A stretch of 64,000 nt of DNA from an uncultured Veillonellaceae bacterium (GCA_900546795.1 UREG01000001.1:29845-93844); one strand, 5' to 3'. Counted from the first letter of the stretch, positions 25,001 to 44,191 are shown. The notes: generated by a model not told the origin, from the sequence alone. Translations and numbers: made by a program.

Positions 25001-25069
25001 AAAAGAGGCACATAAAAGTGCCTCTTTGCGGCTTCCGCCGCTTTATATTTTCTTTTGTCCGGTTACTTT

Positions 25070-26032: not shown

Positions 26033-26065
26033 AGCCTGCTTTTAGATTCACTCTCCATCATCCGA

Positions 26066-28051: not shown

Positions 28052-28227
28052 CTCTGCACCTCATATGCTCTATTCTTTTTATAAAACGGCAAGCTTCCGT
28101 TTTACCTATCACCATTACAGATAAAATTTTTATTTTATCTGTAATGATATTTTTTATGAGGCATATTATAAACTATATACTTAGCATATATTCAAGCAAT
28201 AATTTTATATTTTTATTATTTTTCGGC

Positions 28228-28260
28228 AAAAAAGCACTCGAGGGAGAGTGCTTTTTTTAT
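28228..28260. terminator. Terminator downstream of the HMGL-like gene (end of the minus-strand catabolic operon).
   Basis: AGCACTC-GAGGGAG-GAGTGCT hairpin with A-run and T-run flanks. Confidence 0.75.
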
Positions 28261-28264
28261 CGTT

Positions 28265-29203
28265 CTACATTTTCTTTTGTCCGGTTACTTTTTCTTTTAT
28301 CAAATCCGAGCATTTTCCGGCTTTCAGCATATAGCTTTCCGTGTCATGACCGACATATTCCCGTACTTTTTTCGATAACGCGATCAGCTTATCCAGATCG
28401 ATGCCCGTTTCAATCCCCATTTCATGCAGCATATGAACGATATCTTCCGTGCAAGCATTGCCGGACGCTCCCGGTGCGTAGGGGCAGCCGCCCAGGCCGG
28501 AAAACGATCCGTCAAAGTTGACGATCCCCGCCTGCATGGCGGTAATAATGCAAGCCATCGCCATGTCCCGGGTGTTGTGCAGATGCAGGTTCCACTGTAC
28601 ATCGGGATATTTCTGCGTAAAATAGCTGCATTTTTCATATACTTCTTTCGGGTTTGCCATGCCGGTCGTATCGGACAGCGACAGTTCGGTGATTCCCAGT
28701 GCCGTCAGCTCTTTGACGATCGATTCAATTTTTGGTATCTCGATTTTTCCTTCAAAGGGGCAGCCGAACGCCGTCGACATTGCGCCGGAAACTTCCATCC
28801 CCTGACTGCGCGCCACGGCTACGCATTCGCGAAAACTGCGGACCGTTTCTTCCGGCGTGCGGTTGAAATTGCTCAGATTGTGAGAGGTGCTGACGGATAC
28901 GGTAAGTTTTACTTTTTTGACGCCTGCGGCCGCCGCCCGTTCCACGCCTTTCAAGTTGGTGATCAGCGCCCGATATTCCACATCATCCCGTTTATGAAGG
29001 CGCGCATACATTTCATCGGTATCCGCCAAAGCGGGAATGGCTTTAGGATGGACAAACGAACCGATTTCAATTTGCTTCAATCCGGCTTCCGCCGCCAGTT
29101 CGATCAATTCCGCTTTCTGTTCTATGGTCAATCGCTGCTTCTCGTTTTGCAGGCCGTCTCGGGGCCCTACTTCACATATATATACCCGTTTTGGAAATTT
29201 CAT
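28265..29203 (-). CDS. HMG-CoA lyase family (DRE-TIM metallolyase) acyl-CoA lyase. Candidate hydroxymethylglutaryl-CoA or (R)-citramalyl-CoA lyase.
   Basis: 312 aa. EVGPRDGLQNE N-terminal motif and HxH metal ligands (NLHLHNTRDMA) typical of HMGL-like enzymes. Confidence 0.85.
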   Translation of the reverse strand: MKFPKRVYICEVGPRDGLQNEKQRLTIEQKAELIELAAEAGLKQIEIGSFVHPKAIPALADTDEMYARLHKRDDVEYRALITNLKGVERAAAAGVKKVKLTVSVSTSHNLSNFNRTPEETVRSFRECVAVARSQGMEVSGAMSTAFGCPFEGKIEIPKIESIVKELTALGITELSLSDTTGMANPKEVYEKCSYFTQKYPDVQWNLHLHNTRDMAMACIITAMQAGIVNFDGSFSGLGGCPYAPGASGNACTEDIVHMLHEMGIETGIDLDKLIALSKKVREYVGHDTESYMLKAGKCSDLIKEKVTGQKKM

Positions 29204-29214
29204 ATTCTCATCTC

Positions 29215-30351
29215 CTATATGGCTTCAATCGATTTATACACTACGCTGCCCCTGCATACCGTCATCTGCGGCACGATGGCCTGAGAGCCGGTCCGTTTCC
29301 GTTTTTGCGTATCTCCAAATACAATTGTTTTTTCTTTTACTTTAAAAACGGTGATATCCCCTTCATATCCCGGCTCCAGCCGCCCCAGCATATCGGCGAG
29401 ACCCAGCGCCTTTGCCGGCGTATAGGTGCAGGCAGCCAAGATATCTTCCAGCTTCATGCCCAGCAGAAGATATTTGGACAACACGTAAGGGAGAGAAAAT
29501 ACCGGATCTTTATACAATGTTTTTACGGTAATATCCGTCGATATGATATCCGGCAAAAATCCCTGTTCTATCCCGGCCTGCGCCACTTCAAACGACCAGT
29601 GGTTGCTGCCGTTGGCCGCATCTATGATAACGCCTCGTTTCTGCGCGTCCCTTACTTCAGGATATACTTCCCCTTTTTCGTTCAAGATCGTATTTCCCGT
29701 TCCATGATAACAGTGGGCCAGCGTATCTCCCGGCCGCAGCGCAGACGCAGCTTCATCAAGTGTAATAGGCGAATCGGTGGTGTGTACGGTAACCGGCACC
29801 CCCAGCCGTTCTGCCAGTTTCAGCATGGCGTAAAACGGCCGGCTGCCCAATTCTTTTGCAATACCTTTGCTGCTGCGCATTTTCAAGCCTTTCCAGATCG
29901 CAGGATACGAGGTCAGCATCGCCTGAATCCCTTCTTCGTCCCAATATTTCGGATCCAGATCTTCATGAAATTTCATCGTCCCCATACCTGTCGGGCACAC
30001 GTTCAACAGCCCGTATATCCGCATTTCACTTCGATATACAATATTTTCTATAAAGCTTCTGGCGGTTGCCACTCCCGAGCTTCCTGCATCTACGGCTGTG
30101 CAGACGCCCTGCGGGAAAAAGTTGCTGTCCGTATCAATCCCTATTTCTGTCGTGTGGGGAAATACATGGGCGTGATAGTCGATCCAGCCTGCGGAAACAT
30201 AATACCCGTCGGCATCAAATTCTATCACCGGAGCTTGTATCTCTTCTTCCCTGCATATTTTTCCGGCATGTACATATACGTCCCGTTTAGTAAACGTCCG
30301 CTCGATCGGATCAAAGACGCTGCCGTTTCGAATAATCAAATCCTGCCTCAT
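29215..30351 (-). CDS. Amidohydrolase-superfamily metal-dependent hydrolase (deacetylase / cyclic amidase-like).
   Basis: 378 aa. HxH motif (IDYHAHV) near the N-terminus and a TIM-barrel amidohydrolase pattern. Substrate unknown. Confidence 0.72.
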   Translation of the reverse strand: MRQDLIIRNGSVFDPIERTFTKRDVYVHAGKICREEEIQAPVIEFDADGYYVSAGWIDYHAHVFPHTTEIGIDTDSNFFPQGVCTAVDAGSSGVATARSFIENIVYRSEMRIYGLLNVCPTGMGTMKFHEDLDPKYWDEEGIQAMLTSYPAIWKGLKMRSSKGIAKELGSRPFYAMLKLAERLGVPVTVHTTDSPITLDEAASALRPGDTLAHCYHGTGNTILNEKGEVYPEVRDAQKRGVIIDAANGSNHWSFEVAQAGIEQGFLPDIISTDITVKTLYKDPVFSLPYVLSKYLLLGMKLEDILAACTYTPAKALGLADMLGRLEPGYEGDITVFKVKEKTIVFGDTQKRKRTGSQAIVPQMTVCRGSVVYKSIEAI

Positions 30352-30371
30352 CGTTTACCTCCCGTCTATTT

Positions 30372-31562
30372 TTAAATAACGCCTTTTTCTTCCAAGGCTT
30401 TCAATTCTTCTTCCTCCAATCCCAGCCACTGCCGATATACTTCCGCATTGTGTTCGCCCAGTTTCGGACCAGCCCACTTGATTTCTCCCGGCGTTTCGCT
30501 GAATACCGGCGTGATCCCCGGCATTTTAATGGTTCCCAGCGGTTCATACGGCACTTCTACGATATCGTTTCGATACTGGTACTGCGGGTCGTTAAAGATA
30601 TCTTCGATATCGTATACCAGATTGACCGGCACGCCTTCTTTATCCGCAATAGATTTAATTTCCTGATACGTATGGCTGTGAATCCATTCTCTTACAATCG
30701 CGTCGATTTCCGGATCGTGTTCCACCCGCGCCTTCATCGTGCAGAAATGCGGATGTTCCCTGAGTTCTTCTTTTCCCATAGCCGTCGTCAGATATTCCCA
30801 GGTACGATCTGTACTGCATACCAAAACCACCCATTTTCCGTCTGCGGTTTCATACGTCCCTCCCGGGCTGGAAGTGCCGGACAATTTTGGTTTTCTTGTG
30901 CGGATAATTCCGTTTTTATCGTACTCTGCCACAAGAATTTCCATCATACGGAAAATTCCTTCGTACAGACTAACGTCAATTTCCTGCCCTTTTCCTTTTA
31001 ATACATCTCGATGATACAAAGCCATCATCGTAGCAAAGGTTGCATACAATCCGGCAATATAGTCCGTCAGAGAAAACGACGGGCTGACCGGCGGCCGGTC
31101 CGGATAGCCGGTGATAAAGGTCATGCCGGAAAATGCCGTAGCCGGCGTACCAAATCCGGCGACTTTTTTATACGGTCCTGTCTGGCCGTAGCCGGTTACA
31201 TGGGTCAGGATAATATCCGGATTGGCTTCTTTCATCTTGCTGTAACCGATTCCCCATTTATCCAGCGTTCCCGTTTTAAAATTTTCAATAACCACATCCG
31301 CCTGTTTGACCATATCCAGCAGCATGCGTTTCCCTTCGTCCGTATGAAGATCGAGGGTAACGGATTTTTTATTCCGCCCCATAGCAGCCCAGCGCATGGC
31401 TTTCCCATCGTGATACGGCCCGAGCCGGCGGAATGGATCGCCGGTTTTCGGCATTTCTATCTTAATCACTTCCGCGCCAAAATCCGCCATCAATCCAGCC
31501 GCAAACGGAGCGGCAATAACCGTAGATAAATCCAATACTTTTACACCTTCCAACAGTTTCAT
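30372..31562 (-). CDS. Family III CoA-transferase (CaiB/BaiF family).
   Basis: 396 aa. GVKVLDLS...APFAAGLMADFGAEVIKIE N-terminal motif of family III CoA-transferases. Confidence 0.88.
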   Translation of the reverse strand: MKLLEGVKVLDLSTVIAAPFAAGLMADFGAEVIKIEMPKTGDPFRRLGPYHDGKAMRWAAMGRNKKSVTLDLHTDEGKRMLLDMVKQADVVIENFKTGTLDKWGIGYSKMKEANPDIILTHVTGYGQTGPYKKVAGFGTPATAFSGMTFITGYPDRPPVSPSFSLTDYIAGLYATFATMMALYHRDVLKGKGQEIDVSLYEGIFRMMEILVAEYDKNGIIRTRKPKLSGTSSPGGTYETADGKWVVLVCSTDRTWEYLTTAMGKEELREHPHFCTMKARVEHDPEIDAIVREWIHSHTYQEIKSIADKEGVPVNLVYDIEDIFNDPQYQYRNDIVEVPYEPLGTIKMPGITPVFSETPGEIKWAGPKLGEHNAEVYRQWLGLEEEELKALEEKGVI

Positions 31563-31597
31563 ACGTATCTCTCCTTTTTCATTTTAGTATCGTTTTC

Positions 31598-33045
31598 TTT
31601 ATCGTTATGCTGCTTTTACCAAAGTCCCAATACTTTCCAGAATCCTAATCCTACCGTGAAGTACACGACTACGTTCCACAGCGCATAGATTCCTCCCAGT
31701 TTCCACCATTCCTGCTGCGTTACATATCCGGTCCCATACAGCACCGGCCCCAGCGCTCCGCCGTAATGCGTCAGGCCGCATCCGTATGCCGTGCACGCCG
31801 CTACCATATACGTCAGCACTTCCGCCGGAATATTTGCTACCATTCCCAGCGTAAACGCTACCGGCACAAACGCCGTTACAAACGCTCCCATCGACGCAAA
31901 CAGGTATCGGGTGACGATGCATACTCCGATGATAATTCCCAGCACCGTCAGCATTCCCATCGATTCCAATGCCAGATAGCTCTGCACCCATTTTGCCAGC
32001 CATACGAAGAAGTTTGCTTTGGCCAGCGACGCCGACAAGCCTACGATAAACCCGAACCAGATCAGCGTATTCCACGCGCTCTTATTTTCCAGCACGTCCT
32101 GTATCGTAAACAAATCCAGCAGCAGCGCCAAAGCCAGGAACGCCAGCGCTACGCACGTTGCGTTCAGTTTCAGGATATCTCCCATTGCCCAGCCGGCAAT
32201 TGCCAGAACAAACAAGACGACCAGGATTTTTTCCGTCCGTTTCATCGGCCCTAATTCTGCCAGCCCTTTTTCCGAGATTTCTCTTGCGTTCGGAATTTTC
32301 TTCAATTCCGGCGGATACAGTTTGTACAGCATGATCGGTATCGTAAACAGTACCAAAAGTCCCGGCACGCTCATTGCCAGCGCCCAGCTTGCCCAGGTCA
32401 CGTCCGCTCCCAATATCTTTCTGGCAAAGTCCACCGTTACCAGATTCGGCGAGCAGGCCGTAATAAATATCCCGGCGGTCGTAAAGCTTACCAGCGCCTG
32501 CAGGATCGTAAACAGCGACCCGATTTTTCTTCTCGTTTCTCCCGGTTCGCTTCCCAGCGTCGTGGCGATGCTTCGAAATACCGGCCATACGATCCCGCCG
32601 GACCGCGCCGTATTCGACGGCGTTGCCGGGCTGATGATCAAGTCTACAATGGCCATTACATAACTAAGTCCCAGTGTCGTTCCCCCGAATTTTCCGATCA
32701 GCCAATAGGATATTCTCGTTCCTATCCCTGTTTTTACAAATGCCATGCTGATCAAAAAGGCGATAAATACCAGCCACACCGTGGTGGTGGCAAACCCGTT
32801 GAGCACGTTTGCCGGTTTCGTCATCAAACTTCCCAGACCGGCTACTACAATGAGCACGCTCGATTCCCCTGCCGGCCGAATGATCAGCCCTACGATCGAT
32901 GCGATATAAATCCCCAGCAATACCATCGCATCTGCTGTCAATCCTTCCGGCGGCGTCATGTGTCCGATTCCCACCATCAGGATACCCAAGATCAGCCATT
33001 TGATCCCCGTCATTTTTGCTTTTCCTTCCATGTCCCTTCTCCCCT
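31598..33045. repeat. Copy 1 of an exact direct repeat of about 1.45 kb (RBS, citT-like CDS and about 20 bp of 3' flank).
   Basis: Nucleotide-for-nucleotide identical to 37413-38860 (offset 5815 bp). Flanking sequences diverge immediately outside these boundaries. Confidence 0.9.
31616..33031 (-). CDS. citT: DASS-family di/tricarboxylate transporter (CitT / SodiT1-like anion permease), copy 1.
   Basis: 471 aa polytopic protein with a characteristic duplicated SNT/SGG hairpin motif (PSNTARSGG...). Protein sequence identical to the copy at 37431-38846. Confidence 0.85.
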   Translation of the reverse strand: MEGKAKMTGIKWLILGILMVGIGHMTPPEGLTADAMVLLGIYIASIVGLIIRPAGESSVLIVVAGLGSLMTKPANVLNGFATTTVWLVFIAFLISMAFVKTGIGTRISYWLIGKFGGTTLGLSYVMAIVDLIISPATPSNTARSGGIVWPVFRSIATTLGSEPGETRRKIGSLFTILQALVSFTTAGIFITACSPNLVTVDFARKILGADVTWASWALAMSVPGLLVLFTIPIMLYKLYPPELKKIPNAREISEKGLAELGPMKRTEKILVVLFVLAIAGWAMGDILKLNATCVALAFLALALLLDLFTIQDVLENKSAWNTLIWFGFIVGLSASLAKANFFVWLAKWVQSYLALESMGMLTVLGIIIGVCIVTRYLFASMGAFVTAFVPVAFTLGMVANIPAEVLTYMVAACTAYGCGLTHYGGALGPVLYGTGYVTQQEWWKLGGIYALWNVVVYFTVGLGFWKVLGLW

Positions 33046-33286
33046 TCTCAATTTCCGTTTTACGAAAACTGATTTTTATTTATCTTCATCATATCATTCT
33101 GCATTTTCATCAGCAATAAAGGGATTTCTCCCCCTATTTTCAGCTATGCATGCGGTGAAATACGCAAAAAGCCAGAACACATCGGACTGAAAGATGGTTC
33201 TGGCTTTTCCTGTTATATTTACTTTTTATTTTATATGACAAAATGTCATTTTCGTGTAACAAAAATGATTTTTTCCGTATGCTATT

Positions 33287-34036
33287 TTATCCCGGCTGGT
33301 TCCCCTTGTATCCCATTTCCTGCGATATTTTCAGCGCATATCCTTTTACAGCCTCTACTTTATCATACAAATCTTCGCTGATAATACGGGCGGAAGGGCC
33401 GGACAAACTAAAGGCACCCATGATTTTTCCCTGTCCGTTGAAAATAGGCGCCGCAATAGCAGCCACTCCGCTGCTTCGCTCCCCATTCGTAACCGAATAG
33501 CCTTTAGCCCGCACCCGCTCCATGCGATTCTGCAGGGCTTCATCGCTGCCGATCAGCTCTTCCTGAATCCGTTCCGGCGCATAGGCCAAGAGCACCCGCC
33601 CGGACGCTCCCAGTTTTACAGAATACAATTCGCCTATCGTAATAACCTGCCGGAGACTTTGCGTGCTTTCCAGCCGCTCAATGCAGACTTTCTTATCCCC
33701 TTGCCGGATATACAGGCTGATGGTTTCATTAAATTCTTTCCTCAGTTCCGTCATATAGGGCTTGATAACGGCCTTCAGCATTTCCAGCGACGCGCCTTTT
33801 CCCACCGAACCCAGATAGGTAATCTTCGGCCCGAGAGAGTATTTTTTCGATTCTTCATTCCGAAATAAATAGTTTTTATTTTCCATCGTTTTCATGATAC
33901 GGAATGCCGTACTCGGAGATAAATCGGTCAGCTCCGCAATTTCCATCATGGACAATTCCTGCCGGCTCTCCGAAAAACATTCCAGAATAGAAAACGCCCG
34001 ATCCAACACTTTTATATTTTCATCGGCCTTATTCAT
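33287..34036 (-). CDS. IclR-family transcriptional regulator.
   Basis: 249 aa with an N-terminal wHTH (VLDRAFSILECF...MEIAELTDLSPSTAFRIMKTM) and a C-terminal effector domain. Confidence 0.88.
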   Translation of the reverse strand: MNKADENIKVLDRAFSILECFSESRQELSMMEIAELTDLSPSTAFRIMKTMENKNYLFRNEESKKYSLGPKITYLGSVGKGASLEMLKAVIKPYMTELRKEFNETISLYIRQGDKKVCIERLESTQSLRQVITIGELYSVKLGASGRVLLAYAPERIQEELIGSDEALQNRMERVRAKGYSVTNGERSSGVAAIAAPIFNGQGKIMGAFSLSGPSARIISEDLYDKVEAVKGYALKISQEMGYKGNQPG

Positions 34037-34173
34037 CCTACCACCTTCTCTGTTCCCCTAGATATCACTGCTTTCTGAAATATACATAGTATAGCATGAA
34101 TGCGTACAATGCGAAAGGCAAACAAAAAAGGCCGCTGTATAACAGCAGCCTTTTTCTTTCTATGCAGCAAGGA

Positions 34174-34725
34174 TCAGATCATGCCTACGAACGATTTTAG
34201 CATTTCAAAGTTCAGCATATCCGCATGGTAAATGACAACGCCTTCCGGGCTTCTCAGCGTTCCATTGCCTTCATGGGCATGGTTGGCAATGATATGCGCC
34301 ACCTCGCAGGGCAAATCAAATTTCATTGCCAGGCCCGCGCCGGAAAATGGATGGCGGAGATTTTTCCCTATATAGGATTTTACAAATTTCCCATCTTCAT
34401 TTTTGGTATATTCAATGATTTTACCTACGTCGTGAAGAAGTGCGCCGGCAATCAGATAGTCAAAGTTCAGGGCATATTTTTCTTCATATAACCCTTTGGC
34501 TTCCTGATACGCCTGATAGGACATGCGGGTAACGGCCCGTACATGCGTGCGGTAGCTGATAATGGTATCCGGAATGACCAGCGTAAAAGGAAGTACGTCT
34601 ACGTCTTCTAATTCCCAGTTTCCCATTTTCAGCGCTTCCCGATATACCATTTCCACTTGGCTGCGCAGCATTTCATCCTGAATCCATTCTACTTCCGGAA
34701 ATGCTTCTTTAAACGATTGATACAT
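34174..34725 (-). CDS. HD-domain metal-dependent phosphohydrolase, function unknown. Embedded in the cit-like operon.
   Basis: 183 aa with H...HD motif (ALLHDVGK) and downstream His/Asp ligands. Confidence 0.7.
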   Translation of the reverse strand: MYQSFKEAFPEVEWIQDEMLRSQVEMVYREALKMGNWELEDVDVLPFTLVIPDTIISYRTHVRAVTRMSYQAYQEAKGLYEEKYALNFDYLIAGALLHDVGKIIEYTKNEDGKFVKSYIGKNLRHPFSGAGLAMKFDLPCEVAHIIANHAHEGNGTLRSPEGVVIYHADMLNFEMLKSFVGMI

Positions 34726-34738
34726 AGTGCGTCTCCTC

Positions 34739-36244
34739 CTATTTTACATTGCGAATGACATCGATGATCCGTCCGTCCCGATATTCTACGATACCGCCCA
34801 GAACGTCTCCAAATTCCGTGTCTTTCGGCCGGCCTGCCAATTTATAGGCTTTGGCCTGCAATTCTTCTATCGTAAACTGCGGTACATTAAGCGTCTGGAA
34901 CCGCTCTTTCAAATCTTCCCGCAGCGGATTGACTGCAATGCCGTATTCCGTAACGAGCACGTCAATCGTGCTGCCCGGCGTTACAATCGTATTGACCCGA
35001 TCCAAGATCATAGGCAGGCGTCCCCGCAGAAGAGGCATGGTAACCATGCTCATTTTCGCCCCTGCCGCCGCGTCCGGATGTCCGCCGGGAGCGCCGATCA
35101 GTTTGCCGTACGAGTTTGTCAGCACATTTACATTAAAATCCAAGTCCATTTCCGTCGCGCTCAGCACCGCTACGTCCAGCAGATTAACATTCGGGTTTTC
35201 TTCAAACGGATTGGCATACGTCGATGCCGATACTTCATGGTGGCCCGCATTCTGTTTAATGGAATAGATAATGCTCGTATCAAAGGTTTGCGGATCGTAT
35301 ACATCCTGAATCCAGCCGTCTTCGAGCATGCTGACCAGCGCGCCGGTCATGCCGCCTACAGCAGACGAAGCATGGATGTTTTGTTTTTCCATTTCTTTGC
35401 GGATCGCCGCCGCCGTACTGATAGCTATGCCGCCGCTTCCAAACTGGAACGACATGCCTTCTTTAAAATACTCGGAAGCCTGAATCACCTGCGCTGCGTA
35501 AGAAGCTATGAGCCGTTCTACCGGGCTTTTTGCCGGCCGGATGGAGCCGGTTGCGATTCCTGCCGGATCACCTACCGAGTCAACTTCTACAATATAATCT
35601 ACCTGATTTCCCAGAATGCTGATATATTCCAGCTTCGTATCGCTCAGGCAGTCCGTAACGGCCACTACCTGTTTTGCATACGCCGCGTCCACCATGGCAT
35701 ATCCCAGCGAGCCGCAGGCCGTCGTTCCATCTACGCCGTTGATATTTCCTTCCCGATCACAGCACGGCGCCGCGATAAAGGCTACATCGATCGGCAGTTC
35801 CCCTGTGGAAATGGCTCTGGCCCGTCCTCCGTGCGTACGGAACATAGCCGGTTTTGCCAATTTTCCCGCCTGTATCCACGAGCCGAGTTTCCCCCTGGCT
35901 CCGCTCGTATCGATCGCCGTAATCGTGCCGTCTTCCAAATACGGCAGCAGCGCGTCCTGCACCAGGCTAAGCGAACTGGCAGACAGCGTAAGTCCTTTGA
36001 TTCCTTTTTCATGGATCGCCGCAAATACGAGCTGCATGAGAATATCGCCGTTTCTAAAGTGGTGATGGAAAGAAACCGTCATGCCGTCCGTTAATCCCAC
36101 CGCATCAATTGCCTGCCGCAGATCTTTGAGCAGCTGCGCCGGAGCCGCCGCTTTGCGTACCGGCAGCAAAGGGCGTTTCGGTACGGTTACCGCCGGATCA
36201 TACCATTCTTTTTTCAAATCCCCCGTCAGTTCCTGCACGTCCAT
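34739..36244 (-). CDS. citF: Citrate lyase alpha subunit homologue (citrate CoA-transferase / citrate:acetyl-ACP transferase family).
   Basis: 501 aa, full-length CitF-family protein. Immediately downstream of citE with stop and start adjacent. Confidence 0.9.
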   Translation of the reverse strand: MDVQELTGDLKKEWYDPAVTVPKRPLLPVRKAAAPAQLLKDLRQAIDAVGLTDGMTVSFHHHFRNGDILMQLVFAAIHEKGIKGLTLSASSLSLVQDALLPYLEDGTITAIDTSGARGKLGSWIQAGKLAKPAMFRTHGGRARAISTGELPIDVAFIAAPCCDREGNINGVDGTTACGSLGYAMVDAAYAKQVVAVTDCLSDTKLEYISILGNQVDYIVEVDSVGDPAGIATGSIRPAKSPVERLIASYAAQVIQASEYFKEGMSFQFGSGGIAISTAAAIRKEMEKQNIHASSAVGGMTGALVSMLEDGWIQDVYDPQTFDTSIIYSIKQNAGHHEVSASTYANPFEENPNVNLLDVAVLSATEMDLDFNVNVLTNSYGKLIGAPGGHPDAAAGAKMSMVTMPLLRGRLPMILDRVNTIVTPGSTIDVLVTEYGIAVNPLREDLKERFQTLNVPQFTIEELQAKAYKLAGRPKDTEFGDVLGGIVEYRDGRIIDVIRNVK

Positions 36245-37117
36245 TTACAGCACCCCCGATTCTTTGGCGTATTCCAGTATCTCTTTCGCCCGCGTTACCA
36301 TCGGCATATCGATCATTTTTCCGTTCAGGGAAATTACGCCGGAGCCGGCAGCCACCGCTTCGTCATAAGCCGCTAAAACCGCCTGCGAATGGGTGATCTG
36401 TTTTTCCGACGGCGTGTAAATTTCGTGTACGATCGGAATCTGATCCGGATGAACTACTGATTTGCCCGTATAGCCGAGCAGTTTGCCCTGAGCCGCGTTT
36501 TCGCGGAATCCTTCCGTATTTTTTACATCGCTGTACACAAAATCCAACACCAATACTTTTGCCGCATGGCCTTCCAAGACAAATTTTGCCCGGGCATATT
36601 CCATTTCTTTGCCTTCTGCGGTACGCGTCGTTTTCATATCCGTTACGAAATCTTCCGCTCCCAGTCCGATTGCCAGCACGCGGGGCGAAGCGGACGCAAT
36701 GCGGTAGGCGTTGTATACTCCCAGCGCCGTTTCGATCGTGCAGACTATCTTGATGGTCCCTTCTTCCATACCATGTTTCCGTTCTTCTATCCCGATCATT
36801 TTATCTAAGGTCAGCACATCTTCCGGCGTTTCCGTTTTAGAAAGGCGAAGGAAATCCGGGCGAAGCGGCACCATAGCCCGCACGTCATCGGCTGCAAACG
36901 GCGTATCCAGCGCATTAATGCGCACGCCGATCCGAATATCCGGCCGTATTTCTTTCATCGCATACGATACGAGAATGCGGGCGCTTTCTTTTTCGCCTAC
37001 CGATACGGAGTCTTCCAAATCATAGATAATGCAGTCCGGCCGGTATACTTCTGCTTTGGCAATTTTTTTCGGGTCGTTGCCCGGTACGAAAAATAAGGTA
37101 CGGTATAAGGAATTCAT
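36245..37117 (-). CDS. citE: Citrate lyase beta subunit homologue (citryl-CoA / citramalyl-CoA lyase, HpcH/CitE family).
   Basis: 290 aa with CitE-family motifs (LRRTLFFVPGN..., DLEDSV). Overlaps citD by 4 nt. Confidence 0.88.
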   Translation of the reverse strand: MNSLYRTLFFVPGNDPKKIAKAEVYRPDCIIYDLEDSVSVGEKESARILVSYAMKEIRPDIRIGVRINALDTPFAADDVRAMVPLRPDFLRLSKTETPEDVLTLDKMIGIEERKHGMEEGTIKIVCTIETALGVYNAYRIASASPRVLAIGLGAEDFVTDMKTTRTAEGKEMEYARAKFVLEGHAAKVLVLDFVYSDVKNTEGFRENAAQGKLLGYTGKSVVHPDQIPIVHEIYTPSEKQITHSQAVLAAYDEAVAAGSGVISLNGKMIDMPMVTRAKEILEYAKESGVL

Positions 37118-37401
37118 ATGCGTCCCTCCTGTTTCTGCCAGCGTAAAATGGCGGTTTCAATCCGCGCTTTCCAAGCAAAATCCAATGCGCCTAAATCCGA
37201 AGCGGCCAGCCGAACGCCGGTCAGCCCGTGTTTGTTCAGCATGTCTTCCACCAAAGCCTGAATATGATCGCCATATTTTGCGGCTACTTTGCTTTCAATC
37301 TGGATTTCATTTTCCGTTTGTTCCGGCACGATCTCAAAGCGGATGAACACATCTTCTTTTTTATCCGTTCCGGCCGTTACACATTTATCTGTAAAGTCCA
37401 T
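37114..37401 (-). CDS. citD: Citrate lyase gamma-subunit (acyl carrier protein) homologue that lacks the conserved prosthetic-group serine.
   Basis: 95 aa, collinear with enterobacterial CitD (AGT...DV.IR, GALD..L.AR). The Ser14 position (LESGD, as recalled from enterobacterial CitD) is DKKED here. No Ser is present in residues 1-36. Confidence 0.78.
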   Translation of the reverse strand: MDFTDKCVTAGTDKKEDVFIRFEIVPEQTENEIQIESKVAAKYGDHIQALVEDMLNKHGLTGVRLAASDLGALDFAWKARIETAILRWQKQEGRI

Positions 37402-37412
37402 GATATCTCTCC

Positions 37413-38860
37413 TTTATCGTTATGCTGCTTTTACCAAAGTCCCAATACTTTCCAGAATCCTAATCCTACCGTGAAGTACACGACTACGTTCCACAGCGCA
37501 TAGATTCCTCCCAGTTTCCACCATTCCTGCTGCGTTACATATCCGGTCCCATACAGCACCGGCCCCAGCGCTCCGCCGTAATGCGTCAGGCCGCATCCGT
37601 ATGCCGTGCACGCCGCTACCATATACGTCAGCACTTCCGCCGGAATATTTGCTACCATTCCCAGCGTAAACGCTACCGGCACAAACGCCGTTACAAACGC
37701 TCCCATCGACGCAAACAGGTATCGGGTGACGATGCATACTCCGATGATAATTCCCAGCACCGTCAGCATTCCCATCGATTCCAATGCCAGATAGCTCTGC
37801 ACCCATTTTGCCAGCCATACGAAGAAGTTTGCTTTGGCCAGCGACGCCGACAAGCCTACGATAAACCCGAACCAGATCAGCGTATTCCACGCGCTCTTAT
37901 TTTCCAGCACGTCCTGTATCGTAAACAAATCCAGCAGCAGCGCCAAAGCCAGGAACGCCAGCGCTACGCACGTTGCGTTCAGTTTCAGGATATCTCCCAT
38001 TGCCCAGCCGGCAATTGCCAGAACAAACAAGACGACCAGGATTTTTTCCGTCCGTTTCATCGGCCCTAATTCTGCCAGCCCTTTTTCCGAGATTTCTCTT
38101 GCGTTCGGAATTTTCTTCAATTCCGGCGGATACAGTTTGTACAGCATGATCGGTATCGTAAACAGTACCAAAAGTCCCGGCACGCTCATTGCCAGCGCCC
38201 AGCTTGCCCAGGTCACGTCCGCTCCCAATATCTTTCTGGCAAAGTCCACCGTTACCAGATTCGGCGAGCAGGCCGTAATAAATATCCCGGCGGTCGTAAA
38301 GCTTACCAGCGCCTGCAGGATCGTAAACAGCGACCCGATTTTTCTTCTCGTTTCTCCCGGTTCGCTTCCCAGCGTCGTGGCGATGCTTCGAAATACCGGC
38401 CATACGATCCCGCCGGACCGCGCCGTATTCGACGGCGTTGCCGGGCTGATGATCAAGTCTACAATGGCCATTACATAACTAAGTCCCAGTGTCGTTCCCC
38501 CGAATTTTCCGATCAGCCAATAGGATATTCTCGTTCCTATCCCTGTTTTTACAAATGCCATGCTGATCAAAAAGGCGATAAATACCAGCCACACCGTGGT
38601 GGTGGCAAACCCGTTGAGCACGTTTGCCGGTTTCGTCATCAAACTTCCCAGACCGGCTACTACAATGAGCACGCTCGATTCCCCTGCCGGCCGAATGATC
38701 AGCCCTACGATCGATGCGATATAAATCCCCAGCAATACCATCGCATCTGCTGTCAATCCTTCCGGCGGCGTCATGTGTCCGATTCCCACCATCAGGATAC
38801 CCAAGATCAGCCATTTGATCCCCGTCATTTTTGCTTTTCCTTCCATGTCCCTTCTCCCCT
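37413..38860. repeat. Copy 2 of the exact direct repeat of about 1.45 kb.
   Basis: Identical to 31598-33045. Together the two copies bracket citD-citE-citF-HD-iclR (about 4.4 kb). Confidence 0.9.
37431..38846 (-). CDS. citT: DASS-family di/tricarboxylate transporter (CitT-like), copy 2, identical to copy 1.
   Basis: 471 aa with 100% amino-acid identity to the ORF at 31616-33031. Heads the citDEF gene block. Confidence 0.85.
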   Translation of the reverse strand: MEGKAKMTGIKWLILGILMVGIGHMTPPEGLTADAMVLLGIYIASIVGLIIRPAGESSVLIVVAGLGSLMTKPANVLNGFATTTVWLVFIAFLISMAFVKTGIGTRISYWLIGKFGGTTLGLSYVMAIVDLIISPATPSNTARSGGIVWPVFRSIATTLGSEPGETRRKIGSLFTILQALVSFTTAGIFITACSPNLVTVDFARKILGADVTWASWALAMSVPGLLVLFTIPIMLYKLYPPELKKIPNAREISEKGLAELGPMKRTEKILVVLFVLAIAGWAMGDILKLNATCVALAFLALALLLDLFTIQDVLENKSAWNTLIWFGFIVGLSASLAKANFFVWLAKWVQSYLALESMGMLTVLGIIIGVCIVTRYLFASMGAFVTAFVPVAFTLGMVANIPAEVLTYMVAACTAYGCGLTHYGGALGPVLYGTGYVTQQEWWKLGGIYALWNVVVYFTVGLGFWKVLGLW

Positions 38861-38872
38861 TAATTCATTTAC

Positions 38873-39097
38873 TCAATCATCACTCTTCCAACCATGGATA
38901 TAAAAGCCGGCAAACGCCAGTACACCGCTGATCGCCGCTGCGGCATACGTCGGCTTGCTCAGATAATTTTTCGCAGCCAATGCCAGCGATCCGTCCAGCA
39001 TCACAACCCCGATCGCCTGCATCAGCACGATCCCCGTGCCCATCAGCATGAATAAGAACACGCCGATTGCAAATATATTATCTAACATCCGTTTCAT
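38873..39097 (-). CDS. Small two-TM membrane protein (about 74 aa from MKRMLDNIF). Start overlaps the DctM-like stop by 20 nt and is probably translationally coupled to it. Possible accessory subunit.
   Basis: Two hydrophobic helices. Overlaps the upstream DctM-like gene. No recognisable DctQ homology. Confidence 0.4.
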   Translation of the reverse strand: MKRMLDNIFAIGVFLFMLMGTGIVLMQAIGVVMLDGSLALAAKNYLSKPTYAAAAISGVLAFAGFYIHGWKSDD

Positions 39098-39110
39098 ATG
39101 ATCCCTCCTG

Positions 39111-40454
39111 TCAAATCGGCAGCACGCCAATGCCGATCAGCAGACCGATAAACACGGTCGGAATAACATAATGGAAAATCAGCGGCCGGAACGTAACAGC
39201 CGGATTTACCTGAGCCAAGCCGGAAGCAATGAAGATCGGCGCCGAACTTGGCGGAGACGCTCCTTCTGTAGAGCAGAATACGCAAATCAATACTACGGCG
39301 GTCACCGGATCCACACCGGCCATCGTCAGTGCCGAATACGCTACCGCACCGATCGCTACCGTCGTTGCCGTAGAACTGAGCGGGCCGGCAATCAGCGTAA
39401 CGATGATGCCGACTAAAAGAATCATCAGCCAAGAAGGCACGTCCAAGCTTGCCAATACGTCGGTCATTTCTTTGCCAAGCCCCAATTTCGTCATTACCCG
39501 TCCCGCAGCAAAGGCAAAGAACAGTACTGCGCCGGTAAGAGCAAAGGATTTCATCGTCCCCCGATTAAAATCCATCCATTCAGAAACGGATTTCGGCAGG
39601 CTTTTCCAGCCTTCAAAAATAGAAATCCAAGTGATCAGGATAGGAATCCACACGATCAGCGAAATGCTTTTCAGCGCTTTAGAGCCAAAAGCAGACGCTT
39701 TCAAAAACTCGGATACCGGCCCCATCGTCAGTACCAGCGGAATAATAATTCCCAAAAACATCAGCAGGGACGTCCAGCCGGCTGCCAGCGTTTGGCTCAG
39801 CGGCTTTCTCATCTCTTCCGGAATCGGCGCCACACCGTCTCGCTTTACATAGTACCGTACCAGGATCATGCGATACAGCAGATTCCATATCCCTGCTGCG
39901 AACAACGCCAAATAAAAATCTCCCGGATTGACTTGTTCGCTGACAATCGGTATTGCCAGCAGCAAAAACATGGTAGAGCACGGCGGAAACGCAATGCCCA
40001 AGCCAGCATTTCCCGCAACGATCGTCGCGGCCATCCGGTCTTTCCAGCCGGAGTTGATCATCCAGGGAATCGTTATCGTCCCTACCGATGCAGCATTCCC
40101 GGAGCCCGATCCGGAAATCATACCGAACAAGGCGCTGGCAATCGTGGCGATATAGGCCGCTCCGCCGGCAATTTTACCAAAAATAGAGTTCAAAATGTCT
40201 ACGAGCCGGTACACAAGGCCTGTCTTTTTCATGATCGCCGCCATGTATGCAAACGCCATTGCCGCAAACAGTGTTTCCTGGGTTGCCGCAAACAGCAGGC
40301 TGTCTGTAAACAAGGACACCATCTTGCCGCCGCCCAGCGCCACTACGATAAGCCATGATACAACCATTGCTTCGCCGATGTTTCGCTTCATAAACACATT
40401 CCAGATAATGATAGCGGCAATATACACGATCAGCGATAAAATACCTACACCCAT
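39111..40454 (-). CDS. TRAP-transporter large-permease (DctM)-like IT-superfamily permease. No DctP or DctQ partners are nearby.
   Basis: 447 aa. Internal region FGMISGSGSGNAASVGTITIPWMINSGW...AGNAGLGIAFPPC aligns with the DctM consensus as recalled (FAAISGSSPATVVAIGSVILPAM...). Confidence 0.72.
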   Translation of the reverse strand: MGVGILSLIVYIAAIIIWNVFMKRNIGEAMVVSWLIVVALGGGKMVSLFTDSLLFAATQETLFAAMAFAYMAAIMKKTGLVYRLVDILNSIFGKIAGGAAYIATIASALFGMISGSGSGNAASVGTITIPWMINSGWKDRMAATIVAGNAGLGIAFPPCSTMFLLLAIPIVSEQVNPGDFYLALFAAGIWNLLYRMILVRYYVKRDGVAPIPEEMRKPLSQTLAAGWTSLLMFLGIIIPLVLTMGPVSEFLKASAFGSKALKSISLIVWIPILITWISIFEGWKSLPKSVSEWMDFNRGTMKSFALTGAVLFFAFAAGRVMTKLGLGKEMTDVLASLDVPSWLMILLVGIIVTLIAGPLSSTATTVAIGAVAYSALTMAGVDPVTAVVLICVFCSTEGASPPSSAPIFIASGLAQVNPAVTFRPLIFHYVIPTVFIGLLIGIGVLPI

Positions 40455-40570
40455 ACGTTCACCCCTTTTCTAAACTCACTTTCTTACACGTCCCTATCCT
40501 CCTTTCGGTATAGTGAATCTGTTTTCAGAATTTAAAACTTTACGTTTTTATTATAAAAGCTATTTTTTCA

Positions 40571-40613
40571 ATAAAAAAATAGAGAATACAAATTTTCACC
40601 ATTTGCATTCTCT
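40571..40613 (-). terminator. Terminator downstream of the LysR regulator gene.
   Basis: AGAGAAT...ATTCTCT stem with a T-run on the minus strand. Confidence 0.5.
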
Positions 40614-40631
40614 ATTGTGTGCATCTTTATG

Positions 40632-41504
40632 CTATTTTACTAAACTCCGCTCTTTTATGAAGTTAAAAAACGCCTCGGCCAGCCGGTTTTGCAGGATCTC
40701 TTTCTTATAGATGAGGTAGGTATGGCGGTACAGGATCTTGCCCTGCTTGTCTTTTAAAATCATCGTATGCATATTTTCTCCGCCCCGCCCCATAACCATG
40801 GACGGCAGTACGCCGTATCCTACGCCTCGGTATATCATTTCCCGGCAGGTTTCCAAATTGCTTGTCTGCACATCGATGGTCGGCGGCTTTTTGAAATGCT
40901 CCGCCCACCAGGAATCGAGCACCTGCCGATAATAACTGTCGGTCAGATAATCTACCCGCGGCAGAAGCGGCAGTTCTTCCATCGTAAACGGTTTTGCCGA
41001 TACGAGCACCATATGGTCCTCGGTAATCATAAGCTGTTCAGACGGATCCCATTCCCCTTCGCTGCGGATAAAACCAAAATGCACTTTTCCGCTCCGCACG
41101 CTGCTTGCCGTTTCACTGCTGGAATGGGTCATCAGAAAAATCCGAACTTCCGGATATTCTTCCGTAAACGCTTTTACTATCGGCGGGAGATAATATTTGA
41201 TCACCGTGTGGGGCGCCGCAATGCGCAGTACGCCTTTGACGGTCTGGCTCATTTCCGCCAGCTGCTCCCGGAACAGTTTAAACCGCTGGATCACATCCTT
41301 TGCAAATCGAACGGTAAATTCCCCTTCTTCAGTAAACACGATCCCCTTATTGCTTCGCAAAAATAAAGAAACGCCCAGCGTGGATTCAATGTACTTAATG
41401 CGGGCTGTCAGAGCCGGCTGGGAAATATACAGCTCCTTTGCCGCGCGGGTAATGTTCTTGCATTCATATAGTTTCTGCAGTATATGCCAGTCCCGTTCTT
41501 CCAT
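40632..41504 (-). CDS. LysR-family transcriptional regulator.
   Basis: 290 aa with N-terminal HTH (ITRAAKELYISQPALTARIKYIESTLGVSLF) and a C-terminal substrate-binding domain. Terminator hairpin at 40571-40613. Confidence 0.9.
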   Translation of the reverse strand: MEERDWHILQKLYECKNITRAAKELYISQPALTARIKYIESTLGVSLFLRSNKGIVFTEEGEFTVRFAKDVIQRFKLFREQLAEMSQTVKGVLRIAAPHTVIKYYLPPIVKAFTEEYPEVRIFLMTHSSSETASSVRSGKVHFGFIRSEGEWDPSEQLMITEDHMVLVSAKPFTMEELPLLPRVDYLTDSYYRQVLDSWWAEHFKKPPTIDVQTSNLETCREMIYRGVGYGVLPSMVMGRGGENMHTMILKDKQGKILYRHTYLIYKKEILQNRLAEAFFNFIKERSLVK

Positions 41505-41789
41505 CGTCAGCCTCCTTTGCGATCCTTATCTCTTATTTGATTCTAAGTATACACGAATTTTTCCAAAATAAAAATGAGATTTTTTTATCACGCAAAGGAT
41601 TTCTACCTATCTACAACCATCGATTCTGCGGCTTGCTGTCCGAATACACCAAAAGGCATGGACTTCCTGCCCACGTTTTCTGTACATCCTTACCGCACTT
41701 CCGGCAGCAGGAAAAAAGGTTCTTCATTTTTCCCTATACCAGCCGCGATATCGTTCGCCTCCCGGATTTTTCCTAATCATTTGTCCAAT

Positions 41790-41822
41790 AAAAAAAGACC
41801 TGCCGAAGCAAGTCTTTTGGGT
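41790..41822 (-). terminator. Terminator downstream of the skp-like gene.
   Basis: AAAGACCTGC-CGAA-GCAAGTCTTT hairpin with a 7-T run on the minus strand. Confidence 0.6.
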
Positions 41823-41824
41823 AA

Positions 41825-42250
41825 TTACGAAATCTTTTTGCCTACGTCCTGAGTAATATCCACTGCATTTTCAGCGCCGGCTACAATGCCGCTCTGTTCT
41901 ACTACAACGTCCAGGCCTTTTTCTTTCCGTACTTCATCGATTTTTTTCCGGATATCTTCCCGAATCGGAGTGAAGAGATCCGCTTCTTTTTGCTGCAGTC
42001 TCTGATCCATTTCCTGGGCCAGTTTCTGTTTGTCCGCATCGCTCAAGTTTGCGGATTTATCCTGGAATTCTTTCTGTGCTTTTTCAATTTCTGCACGCAT
42101 GGAAGCTACGGCTTTCGGCGTATTCTTATGCGCAGACACCAGAGTTTCTGCATTGACGAAGCCTACGCCTGCAGCCAATGCGCTGCCCACTGCCATACAA
42201 GACATAACACCTGCTACCGCAAGAGCGGCAAATTTCTTTTTGAAGTTCAT
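41825..42250 (-). CDS. OmpH/Skp-family periplasmic chaperone.
   Basis: 141 aa with a signal peptide (ALAVAGVMSCMAVGSALA). Coiled-coil K/E/Q-rich body typical of Skp/OmpH. Confidence 0.72.
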   Translation of the reverse strand: MNFKKKFAALAVAGVMSCMAVGSALAAGVGFVNAETLVSAHKNTPKAVASMRAEIEKAQKEFQDKSANLSDADKQKLAQEMDQRLQQKEADLFTPIREDIRKKIDEVRKEKGLDVVVEQSGIVAGAENAVDITQDVGKKIS

Positions 42251-42359
42251 ATTGCTTACCTCCTGATTCTATATTTCTATCCAATTGCGAAATTTCATAC
42301 TAATACAATAAGATATTGTGCACCTAGTATATCTTACCAAGGGATTTTTTTCAAGAAAA

Positions 42360-42767
42360 TTATTTTTCTGACGCTTCGCTGCTTTCCTCTTCATCGTTTA
42401 TATAGATATACTTGTCCTTTTTCATCTTATCGATGATTTCCGGCGCCATATTCAGCAGTTTTTCAAAAGCCGAGCTCTGGCTGCCGCCTTTTTTGATAGA
42501 AAACATTTCTACCCGATCGCCTTTTATTACCAGAATCGCCGTCGGTTCCAGCTTAGCGCCGCCGCCGCCGCCGATGCTGGTCTGCGGCGCGTCCGTCTGC
42601 TTGCCGTCAAAGCCGCCGGTCCCAAATCCAAAGGTTACGTCTACAAACGGCACCAGCGTCGCATCGCCGATCTGTACAGCCTGGCCGACAACCGTTTCTA
42701 CAGCGATCATGTTTTTAAAGTTTTCAAAAATCACGTCCAGGTTCTCTTTGATATAATTCGTATCCAT
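42360..42767 (-). CDS. ytfJ: YtfJ/GerW-family sporulation-associated protein.
   Basis: 135 aa. Conserved GxGxGGG glycine-rich core (GFGTGGFDG...GGGGGAKLEP) typical of YtfJ. Confidence 0.72.
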   Translation of the reverse strand: MDTNYIKENLDVIFENFKNMIAVETVVGQAVQIGDATLVPFVDVTFGFGTGGFDGKQTDAPQTSIGGGGGAKLEPTAILVIKGDRVEMFSIKKGGSQSSAFEKLLNMAPEIIDKMKKDKYIYINDEEESSEASEK

Positions 42768-43516
42768 TAGAATCCTCCTTTTCTTTTCCTAATCAGCCAC
42801 AGCAGCGCAGCCCGCACGGACCGGCATGCCAGCAGCCGCAGCGTATAGCCTGCCAATACGAGAGGAATGATCCGTCCCTTGGCTCTGCCGTCTATATCGC
42901 ATACCGCTTCTGTAAAGGAAAATCGAATGCGCCCCATGTATTCCGGGAAACAAGCGTATCCCACAGCAGCGGCCATGCCCGTATAATAGGGCTGGGAAAA
43001 TCCCAGTACTCCCTGAAGCGAAAACTCCCGTATCCAGCTATGGCGAAATACCGCGCGTATCCAGGAAACAACCGCTTTTGCCGCTTCCATTTTTTCAAAG
43101 GAAATCTTTTTTTCCTCTTCTTCCACCAGCGGCAGATCGTTGGCAATCACATCGGTTTCCGCCGGAATCTGCGGCTGCTCGTTCCATTCTTTTTCCAGTT
43201 CTTCATAGGTAACGCCGCCGTCCGGCACGTCGCTGGGAAGTTCCCGGCTGTCCGTTTCCCGACTCACTTCCTGCGCCAGCCACCGTTCATAATTTCGCAG
43301 CTGCGTTTGGTTTTTCCATAGATAATACACCGTGCGCCGCACCGGTTCGCCCGCTTTCCATCGGATATCCGCATACAGCCCTTTTCCCCACCAGGAAAAG
43401 AGGAAATATCCTGTCTTTTCCCGTATAGAAAAAGACAGGCGATACGACGCGGGAACTGACAGCACCATGATCAGCGCCATGCACAGCACGGTAAATAAAA
43501 TCGTCAGTCCAGCCAT
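42767..43516 (-). CDS. ytfI: DUF2953-family (YtfI-like) membrane-anchored protein.
   Basis: 249 aa with an N-terminal TM helix. Stop overlaps the start of ytfJ, as in the Bacillus ytfI-ytfJ pair. Confidence 0.55.
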   Translation of the reverse strand: MAGLTILFTVLCMALIMVLSVPASYRLSFSIREKTGYFLFSWWGKGLYADIRWKAGEPVRRTVYYLWKNQTQLRNYERWLAQEVSRETDSRELPSDVPDGGVTYEELEKEWNEQPQIPAETDVIANDLPLVEEEEKKISFEKMEAAKAVVSWIRAVFRHSWIREFSLQGVLGFSQPYYTGMAAAVGYACFPEYMGRIRFSFTEAVCDIDGRAKGRIIPLVLAGYTLRLLACRSVRAALLWLIRKRKGGF

Positions 43517-43612
43517 AGCATCCCCTGCCTTCCGATGATAGTCTATCTTAATGTAATTCTGCCTATCTCCTGAAAAATCCTTCTTTTTCTGTAAAACCGC
43601 CGCCAGGCTTCG

Positions 43613-44191
43613 TCAGCATTCTATCCCTTTGCGGGCTTCCACGCCTTTATGATAGTAATGCCGCACCTCTTTCATTTCCGTGATCAGATCCGCCGCGTCC
43701 AGTATTTCCTGCGGCGCGTTCCGTCCCGTAAATACCAGCTCCGCCTGCCCCGTATATTCGGCCAGCAGACTCTTCGTATCTTCTTTAGAAATCAGCCCAA
43801 AAAAGGCGGCTACATTATATTCGTCCAATACGATCAGGTCATACGCGTGGGAGCGAAGCGCTTCCCTGGCTTCTTCCACACCGGCTTTCATCATCGCTGC
43901 ATAATCCTGCGGCGGATTGCCTTCTTCAAAAACCTCTATTTCATCGCCCCATGCGGCGATTTCCTCATCGGACAGCATGCCTTTTTTCACGATGAAGCAA
44001 GGTTTTCCCAGCGTTTTCAGCGTCACGCCCGGCATTTTTTCCAGCACGTCCTGTTCGCTGTAATATTTCGATTTCATAAATTGCAGGAACAGTACGTTCA
44101 TGCCGGCGCCGACAGCCCGCACAGCCAGTCCTATGGCTGCCGTCGTCTTGCCTTTTCCATCTCCCGTATATACCTGAATGCAGTGGTTCAT
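43613..44191 (-). CDS. cobO: ATP:cob(I)alamin adenosyltransferase (CobO/CobA/BtuR family).
   Basis: 192 aa with P-loop YTGDGKGKTTAA and family-wide conservation. Confidence 0.88.
   Translation of the reverse strand: MNHCIQVYTGDGKGKTTAAIGLAVRAVGAGMNVLFLQFMKSKYYSEQDVLEKMPGVTLKTLGKPCFIVKKGMLSDEEIAAWGDEIEVFEEGNPPQDYAAMMKAGVEEAREALRSHAYDLIVLDEYNVAAFFGLISKEDTKSLLAEYTGQAELVFTGRNAPQEILDAADLITEMKEVRHYYHKGVEARKGIEC

Follow-up and report, generated by a model that had tools for sequence, protein, structure and literature searches.

Duplicated bacterial genes reportedly undergo concerted evolution by gene conversion, as described for tufA/tufB of Salmonella and Escherichia coli and for the rRNA operons, and E. 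coli citT is said to encode a citrate:succinate antiporter of the divalent anion:Na+ symporter (DASS) family together with citCDEFXG. Here we examine a locus that can be compared with both, located in a stretch of 64,000 nucleotides from an uncultured Veillonellaceae bacterium (GCA_900546795.1, UREG01000001.1:29845-93844; hereafter "the window", whose coordinates are used unless stated otherwise), in which a gene for a DASS anion exchanger occurs twice, in direct orientation, on either side of citDEF-like lyase genes, an HD-domain gene and an IclR-family regulator gene. Overall, we consider it likely that this represents a genuine, species-wide and gene-sized duplication of the exchanger gene, serving two adjacent operons, and that selection and gene conversion hold the two copies close to identity, with the perfect identity seen in the window probably overstated by assembly. 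The locus is a new example of a well-known kind, i.e., a routine gene duplication with concerted evolution.

As in tufA/tufB and the rRNA operons, the two chromosomal copies are near-identical over the coding region only, exchange between them is patchwise, and substitutions are almost all synonymous. Unlike in those systems, the copies lie only 4.4 kb apart, in direct orientation, and serve two different catabolic operons, and the evidence comes from metagenome contigs rather than from genetics. Similarly, as in the E. coli cit locus, a DASS-family exchanger gene directly adjoins citDEF. Unlike in E. coli, this gene lies upstream of citD instead of at the operon end, a conserved HD-domain gene is present, and citC, citX and citG are not among the genes annotated at 22-50 kb (no dedicated search was run for them). 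The likeness to CitT is one of family and of linkage.

An exact gene-sized repeat

The window contains an exact direct repeat of 1450 bp on the minus strand, with a start-to-start spacing of 5815 bp:

31597..33046, minus strand: repeat copy 1, with the DASS open reading frame (ORF) at 31616-33031, identical to the copy 2 ORF; heads the DASS - CoA-transferase - amidohydrolase - HMG-CoA-lyase-like operon
37412..38861, minus strand: repeat copy 2, with a DASS ORF of type B (see below) at 37431-38846; lies within the DctM-like - orf74 - DASS - citDEF - HD operon

A first-pass annotation of the window had reported segments 31598-33045 and 37413-38860 as identical at the nucleotide level, and we indeed find no mismatch across these 1448 nt; the match extends one base further at either end, which gives its real extent of 1450 bp. 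The same annotation described each copy as a ribosome-binding site (RBS), a 471-codon ORF and ~20 bp of 3' flank, with flanks diverging sharply outside, and this description holds: each copy comprises 15 nt 5' of the ATG, the 471-codon DASS ORF and 19 nt 3' of the stop codon. The 15 nt before the ATG are AAGGGGAGAAGGGAC in both copies and are Shine-Dalgarno-like. Across the 300 nt outside each copy boundary, similarity was not above that of shuffled controls, i.e., the boundaries are sharp. Profile matches also agree with the annotation in that the copies bracket citD, citE, citF, HD-domain and IclR genes. Such a 1450-bp exact match is beyond chance, and the doubt concerns true 100% identity in the real genome, not the existence of the duplication.

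No further long repeat was found within the window by self-BLAST and a repeat search, and a comparison of the flanks for homology or microhomology that could account for the boundaries gave nothing above shuffled controls. The immediate downstream DNA of both copies has AAAGGAGAGATA in common, probably no more than the RBS of the gene that follows (citD in one case, the CoA-transferase gene in the other). There was likewise no mobile-element signature: no inverted repeats were found in 25-45 kb, the genes of the repeated unit are all metabolic or regulatory, and the flanks are dissimilar. A duplication mediated by a mobile element (composite transposon, insertion sequence or cassette) was considered and rejected, as the boundaries show none of the usual hallmarks (transposase or integrase, terminal inverted repeats, target-site duplication).

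Two copies in every sampled strain

Exact-protein look-ups with the transporter, CoA-transferase, CitD, orf74 and IclR returned contigs (L numbers below) from ~15 datasets of human-gut metagenomes. All four junctions (orf74 to copy 2, copy 2 to citD, IclR to copy 1, and copy 1 to the CoA-transferase gene) recur across these ~15 independent datasets, in which no third genomic context for the transporter gene was found. Both copies are traversed in four assemblies, namely the window itself, GCA_902406125.1 (L003), ERZ28659298 (L001) and ERZ28535830 (L013). The repeat also occurs as a stand-alone contig of exactly 1450 nt (L005, L006 and L015), and contig starts or ends fall exactly on the repeat boundary in L003 and L004. 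Contigs arriving from the flanks reach 30 nt (Logan), 55 nt (scaffold-type) or 119 nt (k119 MEGAHIT) into the repeat, that is, k or k-1, with k the k-mer size of the assembly. The duplication is genuine and present in every sampled strain rather than private to one.

Scans of the GTDB representative genomes and of JGI metagenomes with the transporter returned only relatives at 67-71% and no extra strains. The locus is chromosomal, with purA, clpB, amtB and a threonine dehydratase gene also in the window, and belongs to an uncultured member of the Veillonellales from the human gut. Its PurA has a 95% identical nearest neighbour in the database, and the best hits with a name are from Megasphaera (77% identity). 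When window 24000-44000 was compared with L001-L055, the species appeared almost clonal across hosts and studies, a dozen or so metagenomes from different projects having only 5 variable sites in ~16 kb of unique sequence.

Copy-specific variants and gene conversion

All contigs were placed on common repeat coordinates, in which window 33046 or 38861 becomes position 1 and the first base of the ATG is position 16. Variable sites are strongly concentrated in the repeat, with 32 in its 1450 bp vs. 5 in the 15,948 bp compared in the unique flanks, which is 70 times as dense (Fisher p = 6e-30), and 28 of the 32 are synonymous. The outermost variants lie at positions 84 and 1362, i.e., 83 nt and 88 nt from the repeat ends. 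Both provide examples of copy-specific alleles in flank-anchored contigs from large-k MEGAHIT assemblies, where copy 1 carries G and copy 2 carries A at position 84, and copy 1 carries T and copy 2 carries C at position 1362.

The clearest assignments come from individual assemblies in which contigs run from a unique flank into the repeat. For ERZ27259233 (k141), the 187-kb contig L044 enters copy 2 from the orf74 side and covers positions 1-336, with A, A, T, G and C at 84, 126, 138, 186 and 195, and L030 enters copy 1 from the IclR side and covers the same positions, with G, G, C, A and G at these five sites. Both contigs stop at 336, which equals 195 + 141. Paths that merge k bases past the last difference, each bound to one flank, cannot derive from a mix of strains with identical copies. 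The copies of this assembly also differ at the 3' end (positions 1212, 1305, 1306, 1311 and 1362). The same arithmetic applies to ERZ920125 (k127), where position 1362 is T in L020 (copy 1) and C in L029 (copy 2) and each contig has its first base at 1235 = 1362 - 127, and to ERZ27294704 (k141), where L052 reaches 225 nt into copy 1 (84 + 141) and position 1362 is C in copy 2 and T in copy 1. ERZ27260212 (k119) matches the window at 100% throughout its unique sequence, and its copy 2 (L004) has the window haplotype from end to end; its copy 1 (L031) departs from the window at 84, 126, 138, 186, 195 and 270. Finally, only copy 2 was resolved in the large-k assembly ERZ27240445, with copy-2-type alleles. 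Overall, variants are bound to one copy in all five large-k assemblies (k = 119-141), and the copies differ in all four where both are comparable.

These data bear on the age of the duplication, which the first-pass annotation had suggested may be very recent. This suggestion is not supported: the same duplication, with the same boundaries, is seen in every strain sampled, and wherever the copies can be distinguished, up to 10 or more sites set them apart, most of them synonymous, with flanks that are almost invariant between strains. The differences that mark each copy go well beyond those separating the strains, and the duplication therefore predates the radiation of the sampled strains.

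The copies have nonetheless not evolved as two fixed sequences. At the 5' edge, the copy 1 haplotype is GGCAG in three samples, GGCAG with an additional 270A in another form, and A-G-C with window alleles at 186 and 195 in ERZ920125. At the 3' edge (positions 1311 and 1362), copy 1 is T,T in every sample resolving these sites, and copy 2 is C,C in one sample, T,C in three samples and T,T in ERZ27260212. Sites 1206 and 1212, only 6 bp apart, occur in three haplotypes. A model with two fixed paralogue sequences and assembler noise only was accordingly rejected, given these three haplotypes and the firmly linked edge haplotypes that differ between samples. The strains compared differ by only 0-3 single-nucleotide polymorphisms (SNPs) across 8-19 kb of flank. 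Nested losses of blocks specific to one copy, confined to 1450 bp and set in near-invariant flanks, fit what is predicted of patchy intrachromosomal gene conversion.

Together these observations support real, patchy gene conversion between the copies, and of the explanations first offered for the identity, it is ongoing gene conversion that agrees with edge haplotypes that are copy-specific and vary among strains in a nested and patchy manner. The features of concerted evolution are found here, with near-identity limited to the shared segment between unrelated flanks, and copy-specific variants erased or exchanged patchwise among strains. Purifying selection and patchy conversion would together keep the copies at 99% identity or more, with conversion acting only inside the 1450 bp of shared sequence. 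The pattern is observed directly in the contigs, and a RecA-type mechanism could underlie it. A near-clonal gut species with patchy conversion tracts differing between hosts may also offer a natural system for the study of conversion rates, once reads are phased.

Assembly and the identity of the copies

De Bruijn assemblers pop bubbles, and in doing so merge the paralogous variants of near-identical repeats. At k = 31 or 55, the outermost variants of this repeat sit between shared k-mers and form poppable bubbles, while at k >= 119 they form branches attached to the flanks. The data follow this expectation exactly, with identical copies confined to k = 31 or 55 and to scaffolded assemblies. 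The assemblies with identical copies moreover carry different haplotypes, with 0, 3 and 14 differences from the window. On balance, we favor the view that the perfect identity in the window is a consensus made by short-read assembly, in which variants more than k bases from the repeat ends were merged. A few to about ten synonymous differences between the copies persist in most strains.

In several respects the locus resembles collapsed repeats in de Bruijn assemblies, with repeat-length contigs, an overlap of k or k-1 with the flanks, identity only at small k, and apparent "polymorphism" confined to the repeat. It is unlike them in that the duplication is real and that part of the variation is a true between-strain difference in copy-specific haplotypes. 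The stand-alone contigs of 1450 nt were considered as proof of identical copies and rejected as such, since variants 83-88 nt from the ends are poppable at k = 31 or 55. More generally, perfect identity between paralogues in a short-read metagenome assembly should not be taken as a sign of recent duplication, and k-mer size decides the apparent identity here.

Several points nevertheless weigh against our interpretation of the locus. The copies are identical in each of the four assemblies that run through both (the window, L003, L001 and L013), and the window strain may be truly homogenised. Bubble popping may also have affected interior variants of flank-anchored contigs, so that assignment to a copy is firm only within k of a repeat end or where variants are chained to one. 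Some metagenomes may contain more than one strain. In addition, the direction of the duplication (see below) is read from synteny with relatives that are only 66-79% identical, and the sharp, gene-sized boundaries show neither a mobile-element signature nor significant microhomology that could explain them.

The strongest alternative is that the copies are truly 100% identical in the window strain, through complete homogenisation by conversion or a very recent overwrite of one copy by the other, and that the variation seen elsewhere lies between strains. We regard this as a serious but less probable possibility. Besides the four assemblies just mentioned, conversion is demonstrably active, with edge haplotypes that vary among strains, and intermediate states are seen: in ERZ27260212, at least the last 119 nt, including site 1362, are genuinely equal in both copies and copy 2 equals the window haplotype, and copy 1 of ERZ920125 already has the window allele A at 84. 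The same ERZ27260212, however, has unique sequence 100% identical to the window and still a copy 1 that departs from it at six sites. True identity also has to contend with the fact that each identical-copy assembly is a different mosaic of the same biallelic sites, which would need several independent conversions per strain among strains whose flanks are only 0-3 SNPs per 8-19 kb apart, and with the dependence of identity on assembly, being seen only at k of 55 or less or in scaffolded traversals, against the five of five large-k assemblies with copy-assigned variants and the four of four comparable ones in which the copies differ.

Origin and stability of the duplication

Relatives of the window species carry two unrelated types of DASS gene in clusters of this kind, types A and B, which are ~25% identical to each other. 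Orthologues of type B, the type found in the window, are 61-89% identical and lie directly before citD or before HD-citDEF in L036 and L038, and after an amidohydrolase gene in L007, L008, L009, L011, L041 and L042. Type A heads the CoA-transferase operon in L008, L009 and L038. Neither a type A DASS gene nor a third DASS copy was found in the window. Because relatives have type A at the position of copy 1 and the site of copy 2 is conserved, copy 1 is probably the derived copy. The identity runs through non-coding bases on both sides of the gene and then stops abruptly, which favors a duplication with breakpoints at -15 and +19 over the homogenisation of old paralogues.

This homogenisation scenario would hold that no duplication took place in this lineage, each copy having arrived with its own module (as in L038) before later becoming alike. 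It draws some support from relatives, where both modules have a DASS gene and type B is found with either module, and we nonetheless judge it unlikely: conversion should leave divergent ends instead of unbroken identity across 15 nt of 5' and 19 nt of 3' non-coding DNA with nothing beyond, and the gene heading the CoA-transferase operon of relatives is of type A, which at ~25% identity is too distant to recombine with type B. A duplication within this lineage hence remains our preferred explanation.

Direct repeats of this size can recombine, and the two copies could in principle act as a recombination switch, as the first-pass annotation proposed, or form an unstable amplicon, with a RecA crossover excising or tandemly amplifying the 5815-bp unit (DASS-citDEF-HD-IclR) and so tuning the dosage of the lyase module in gut populations. 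With 1450 bp in direct orientation, 99% identity or more and a distance of 4.4 kb, they are an adequate substrate, and contig L029 (ERZ920125 k127_124747) at first sight looks like a product: its 5942 nt equal 5815 + 127, and its first 127 nt are its last 127 nt, i.e., it is a closed cycle of the assembly graph. A two-copy chromosome yields the same cycle and explains it, so L029 is uninformative and was dropped as evidence of a circle or tandem array. Assemblies spanning the locus all have two copies, no more and no fewer, on either side of the cassette, every sample covering that part of the locus has kept the cassette, and the recovered contigs include no deletion junction from orf74 through DASS to the CoA-transferase gene. 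Nor did the GTDB and JGI scans described above, limited to relatives at 67-71%, return a deletion or amplification junction. The cassette moreover includes the IclR gene, which in relatives is tied to the downstream operon, and this argues against its dispensability. We therefore hold a switch of this kind to be very improbable.

Finally, the idea, raised in the first-pass annotation, that the duplication is itself an assembly error and only a single transporter gene exists can be dismissed despite the window probably being a short-read metagenome assembly, in which exact repeats that exceed the read length are difficult to place, as four distinct unique flanks abut the repeat in the ~15 datasets and in at least three assembly styles, and large-k contigs tie different alleles to different flanks in one sample, which is impossible with a single copy.

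The transporter and its two operons

The duplicated gene encodes a protein that matches PF00939 over residues 11-471 (E = 2.9e-124) and TIGR00785 with 343.2 bits vs. a cutoff of 198.6, a full-length family match. By both of these profiles it classifies as a member of the DASS family (TC 2.A.47). The nearest solved structures are LaINDY (6wtw/6wu1, E = 4e-73) and the plant transporters DiT2.1 (E = 2e-71) and DiT1 (E = 9e-69), which are exchanger-type DASS proteins.

On the minus strand, the order of genes from 5' to 3' is LysR, DctM-like, orf74, DASS copy 2, citD-like, citE-like, citF, HD, IclR, DASS copy 1, family III CoA-transferase, amidohydrolase, HMG-CoA-lyase-like, followed by TonB-dependent receptor genes. 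The corresponding features, other than the two repeat copies, are as follows:

40632-41504, minus strand: LysR regulator
40578..40616, minus strand: terminator hairpin after the LysR gene; 16-bp stem and U run, -18.4 kcal/mol, z = -4.8
39111..40454, minus strand: DctM-like permease, first gene of the copy 2 operon; PF06808, E = 1.4e-59
38873..39097, minus strand: orf74, a small hydrophobic ORF of 74 codons ending 11 nt before the repeat start; gene-called in other assemblies, no Pfam match
37114..37401, minus strand: citD-like acyl carrier protein; PF06857, E = 1.4e-18; NF009726, 66.6 bits (cutoff 65); TIGR01608, 49 bits (cutoff 63.5, not reached)
36245..37117, minus strand: citE-like beta subunit (HpcH/HpaI lyase); PF03328, E = 6e-59; TIGR01588, 327 bits (cutoff 443, not reached)
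34739..36244, minus strand: citF, citrate lyase alpha subunit / CoA-transferase; TIGR01584, 587.5 bits (cutoff 501.45, passed)
34174..34725, minus strand: HD-domain protein; PF01966, E = 3e-10; beside cit genes in relatives L036 and L038; no match among solved structures
34124..34156, minus strand: intrinsic terminator hairpin closing the cit operon; 15-bp stem and U run, -23.4 kcal/mol, z = -5.2
33287..34036, minus strand: IclR-family regulator; PF09339 and PF01614; an IclR gene adjoins the CoA-transferase operon in relatives
33166..33209, minus strand: terminator-like hairpin after the IclR gene; -24.2 kcal/mol, z = -5.9, then UUUUU
30372..31562, minus strand: family III CoA-transferase; PF02515, E = 1e-120; 9br7 (succinate-hydroxymethylglutarate CoA-transferase), E = 2e-54
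29215..30351, minus strand: amidohydrolase-superfamily metallohydrolase; NF009060, 412 bits; 8je0 "amidase", E = 4e-76
28265..29203, minus strand: HMG-CoA-lyase-like protein; NF004283, 336 bits (cutoff 246, passed); 6nds, E = 2e-75

Given the three hairpins at 40578-40616, 34124-34156 and 33166-33209, each copy is predicted to lie in a separate transcription unit, copy 2 as an internal gene and copy 1 as the first gene. The unique DNA between the terminator-like hairpin after IclR and copy 1 measures 119 nt, which leaves room for a copy 1 promoter. A promoter scan, with 13 sites vs. 19 in shuffled sequence, gave no convincing promoter for copy 1, and a weak TTGCTG-17-TATGAT at 33111-33083 was spotted by eye. 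The proposal of the first-pass annotation that each copy sits in a different upstream context and may be differently regulated thus holds for the separate units, as delimited by the three terminators, with differential regulation itself being only structurally plausible. Each catabolic module could in this way have an importer of its own, controlled by its own regulator. A perfect palindrome, ATGACATTTTGTCAT (33235-33249, minus strand), also follows the IclR stop codon, ahead of the IclR hairpin, and is a candidate regulator binding site.

As for what the two modules process, copy 2 ends 29 nt upstream of citD, and the linkage to citrate lyase genes is repeated in L036 and L038. CitF alone matches at the equivalog level (TIGR01584), with CitE and CitD below the equivalog cutoffs (TIGR01588 and TIGR01608, respectively) and CitD passing only the subfamily model NF009726. 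Because CitE and CitD score below these cutoffs, the substrate may not be citrate, and the cluster may be a non-canonical cit cluster acting on another compound, e.g., the citrate analogue 3-hydroxy-3-methylglutarate. Citrate and 3-hydroxy-3-methylglutarate are both 3-hydroxy-3-substituted glutarates, and relatives L036 and L038 have both the cit-like module and the CoA-transferase / lyase / amidohydrolase module. It is plausible that the two operons handle related acids imported by one exchanger, and that the duplication would let each operon express the importer under its own regulator.

Our literature search found nothing on this gene cluster. The locus shows how one importer gene can supply two separately regulated catabolic operons, and the surrounding uncharacterised cluster (citDEF-like lyase, HD protein, and CoA-transferase / HMG-CoA-lyase-like / amidohydrolase genes) may hold more biochemical interest than the duplication.

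Other features of the region

A fragment of a citF pseudogene lies at 24767-24956 on the plus strand, between two TonB-receptor / iron-uptake genes and ~10 kb from the cit operon. It corresponds to CitF residues 151-217 with 82-84% amino-acid identity, is frameshifted, and shows 83.7% nucleotide identity to 35594-35795 in inverted orientation. The fragment is probably what is left of a second citF, or the trace of an earlier rearrangement.

A 32-nt direct repeat (91% identical) occurs at 25039-25070 and 28261-28292, where it overlaps the 3' ends of a periplasmic-binding-protein gene (25070-26032) and of the HMG-CoA-lyase-like gene (28265-29203), respectively.

Two of the metagenome assemblies also differ structurally from the window outside the repeat. 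In ERZ28535830 / SRR14610645, the TonB-dependent receptor gene at 22466-24388 is truncated by an insertion at about window 24000-24400 (L013 18644-21416, also in L017 and L022), which has genes for a large serine recombinase, for a HicAB toxin-antitoxin pair and for a helix-turn-helix protein and is an integrated mobile element not present in the window. ERZ27259233 has a 33-bp tandem duplication relative to window ~42310-42342 (L044 2723-2788), between Spore_YtfJ-like and OmpH-like genes.

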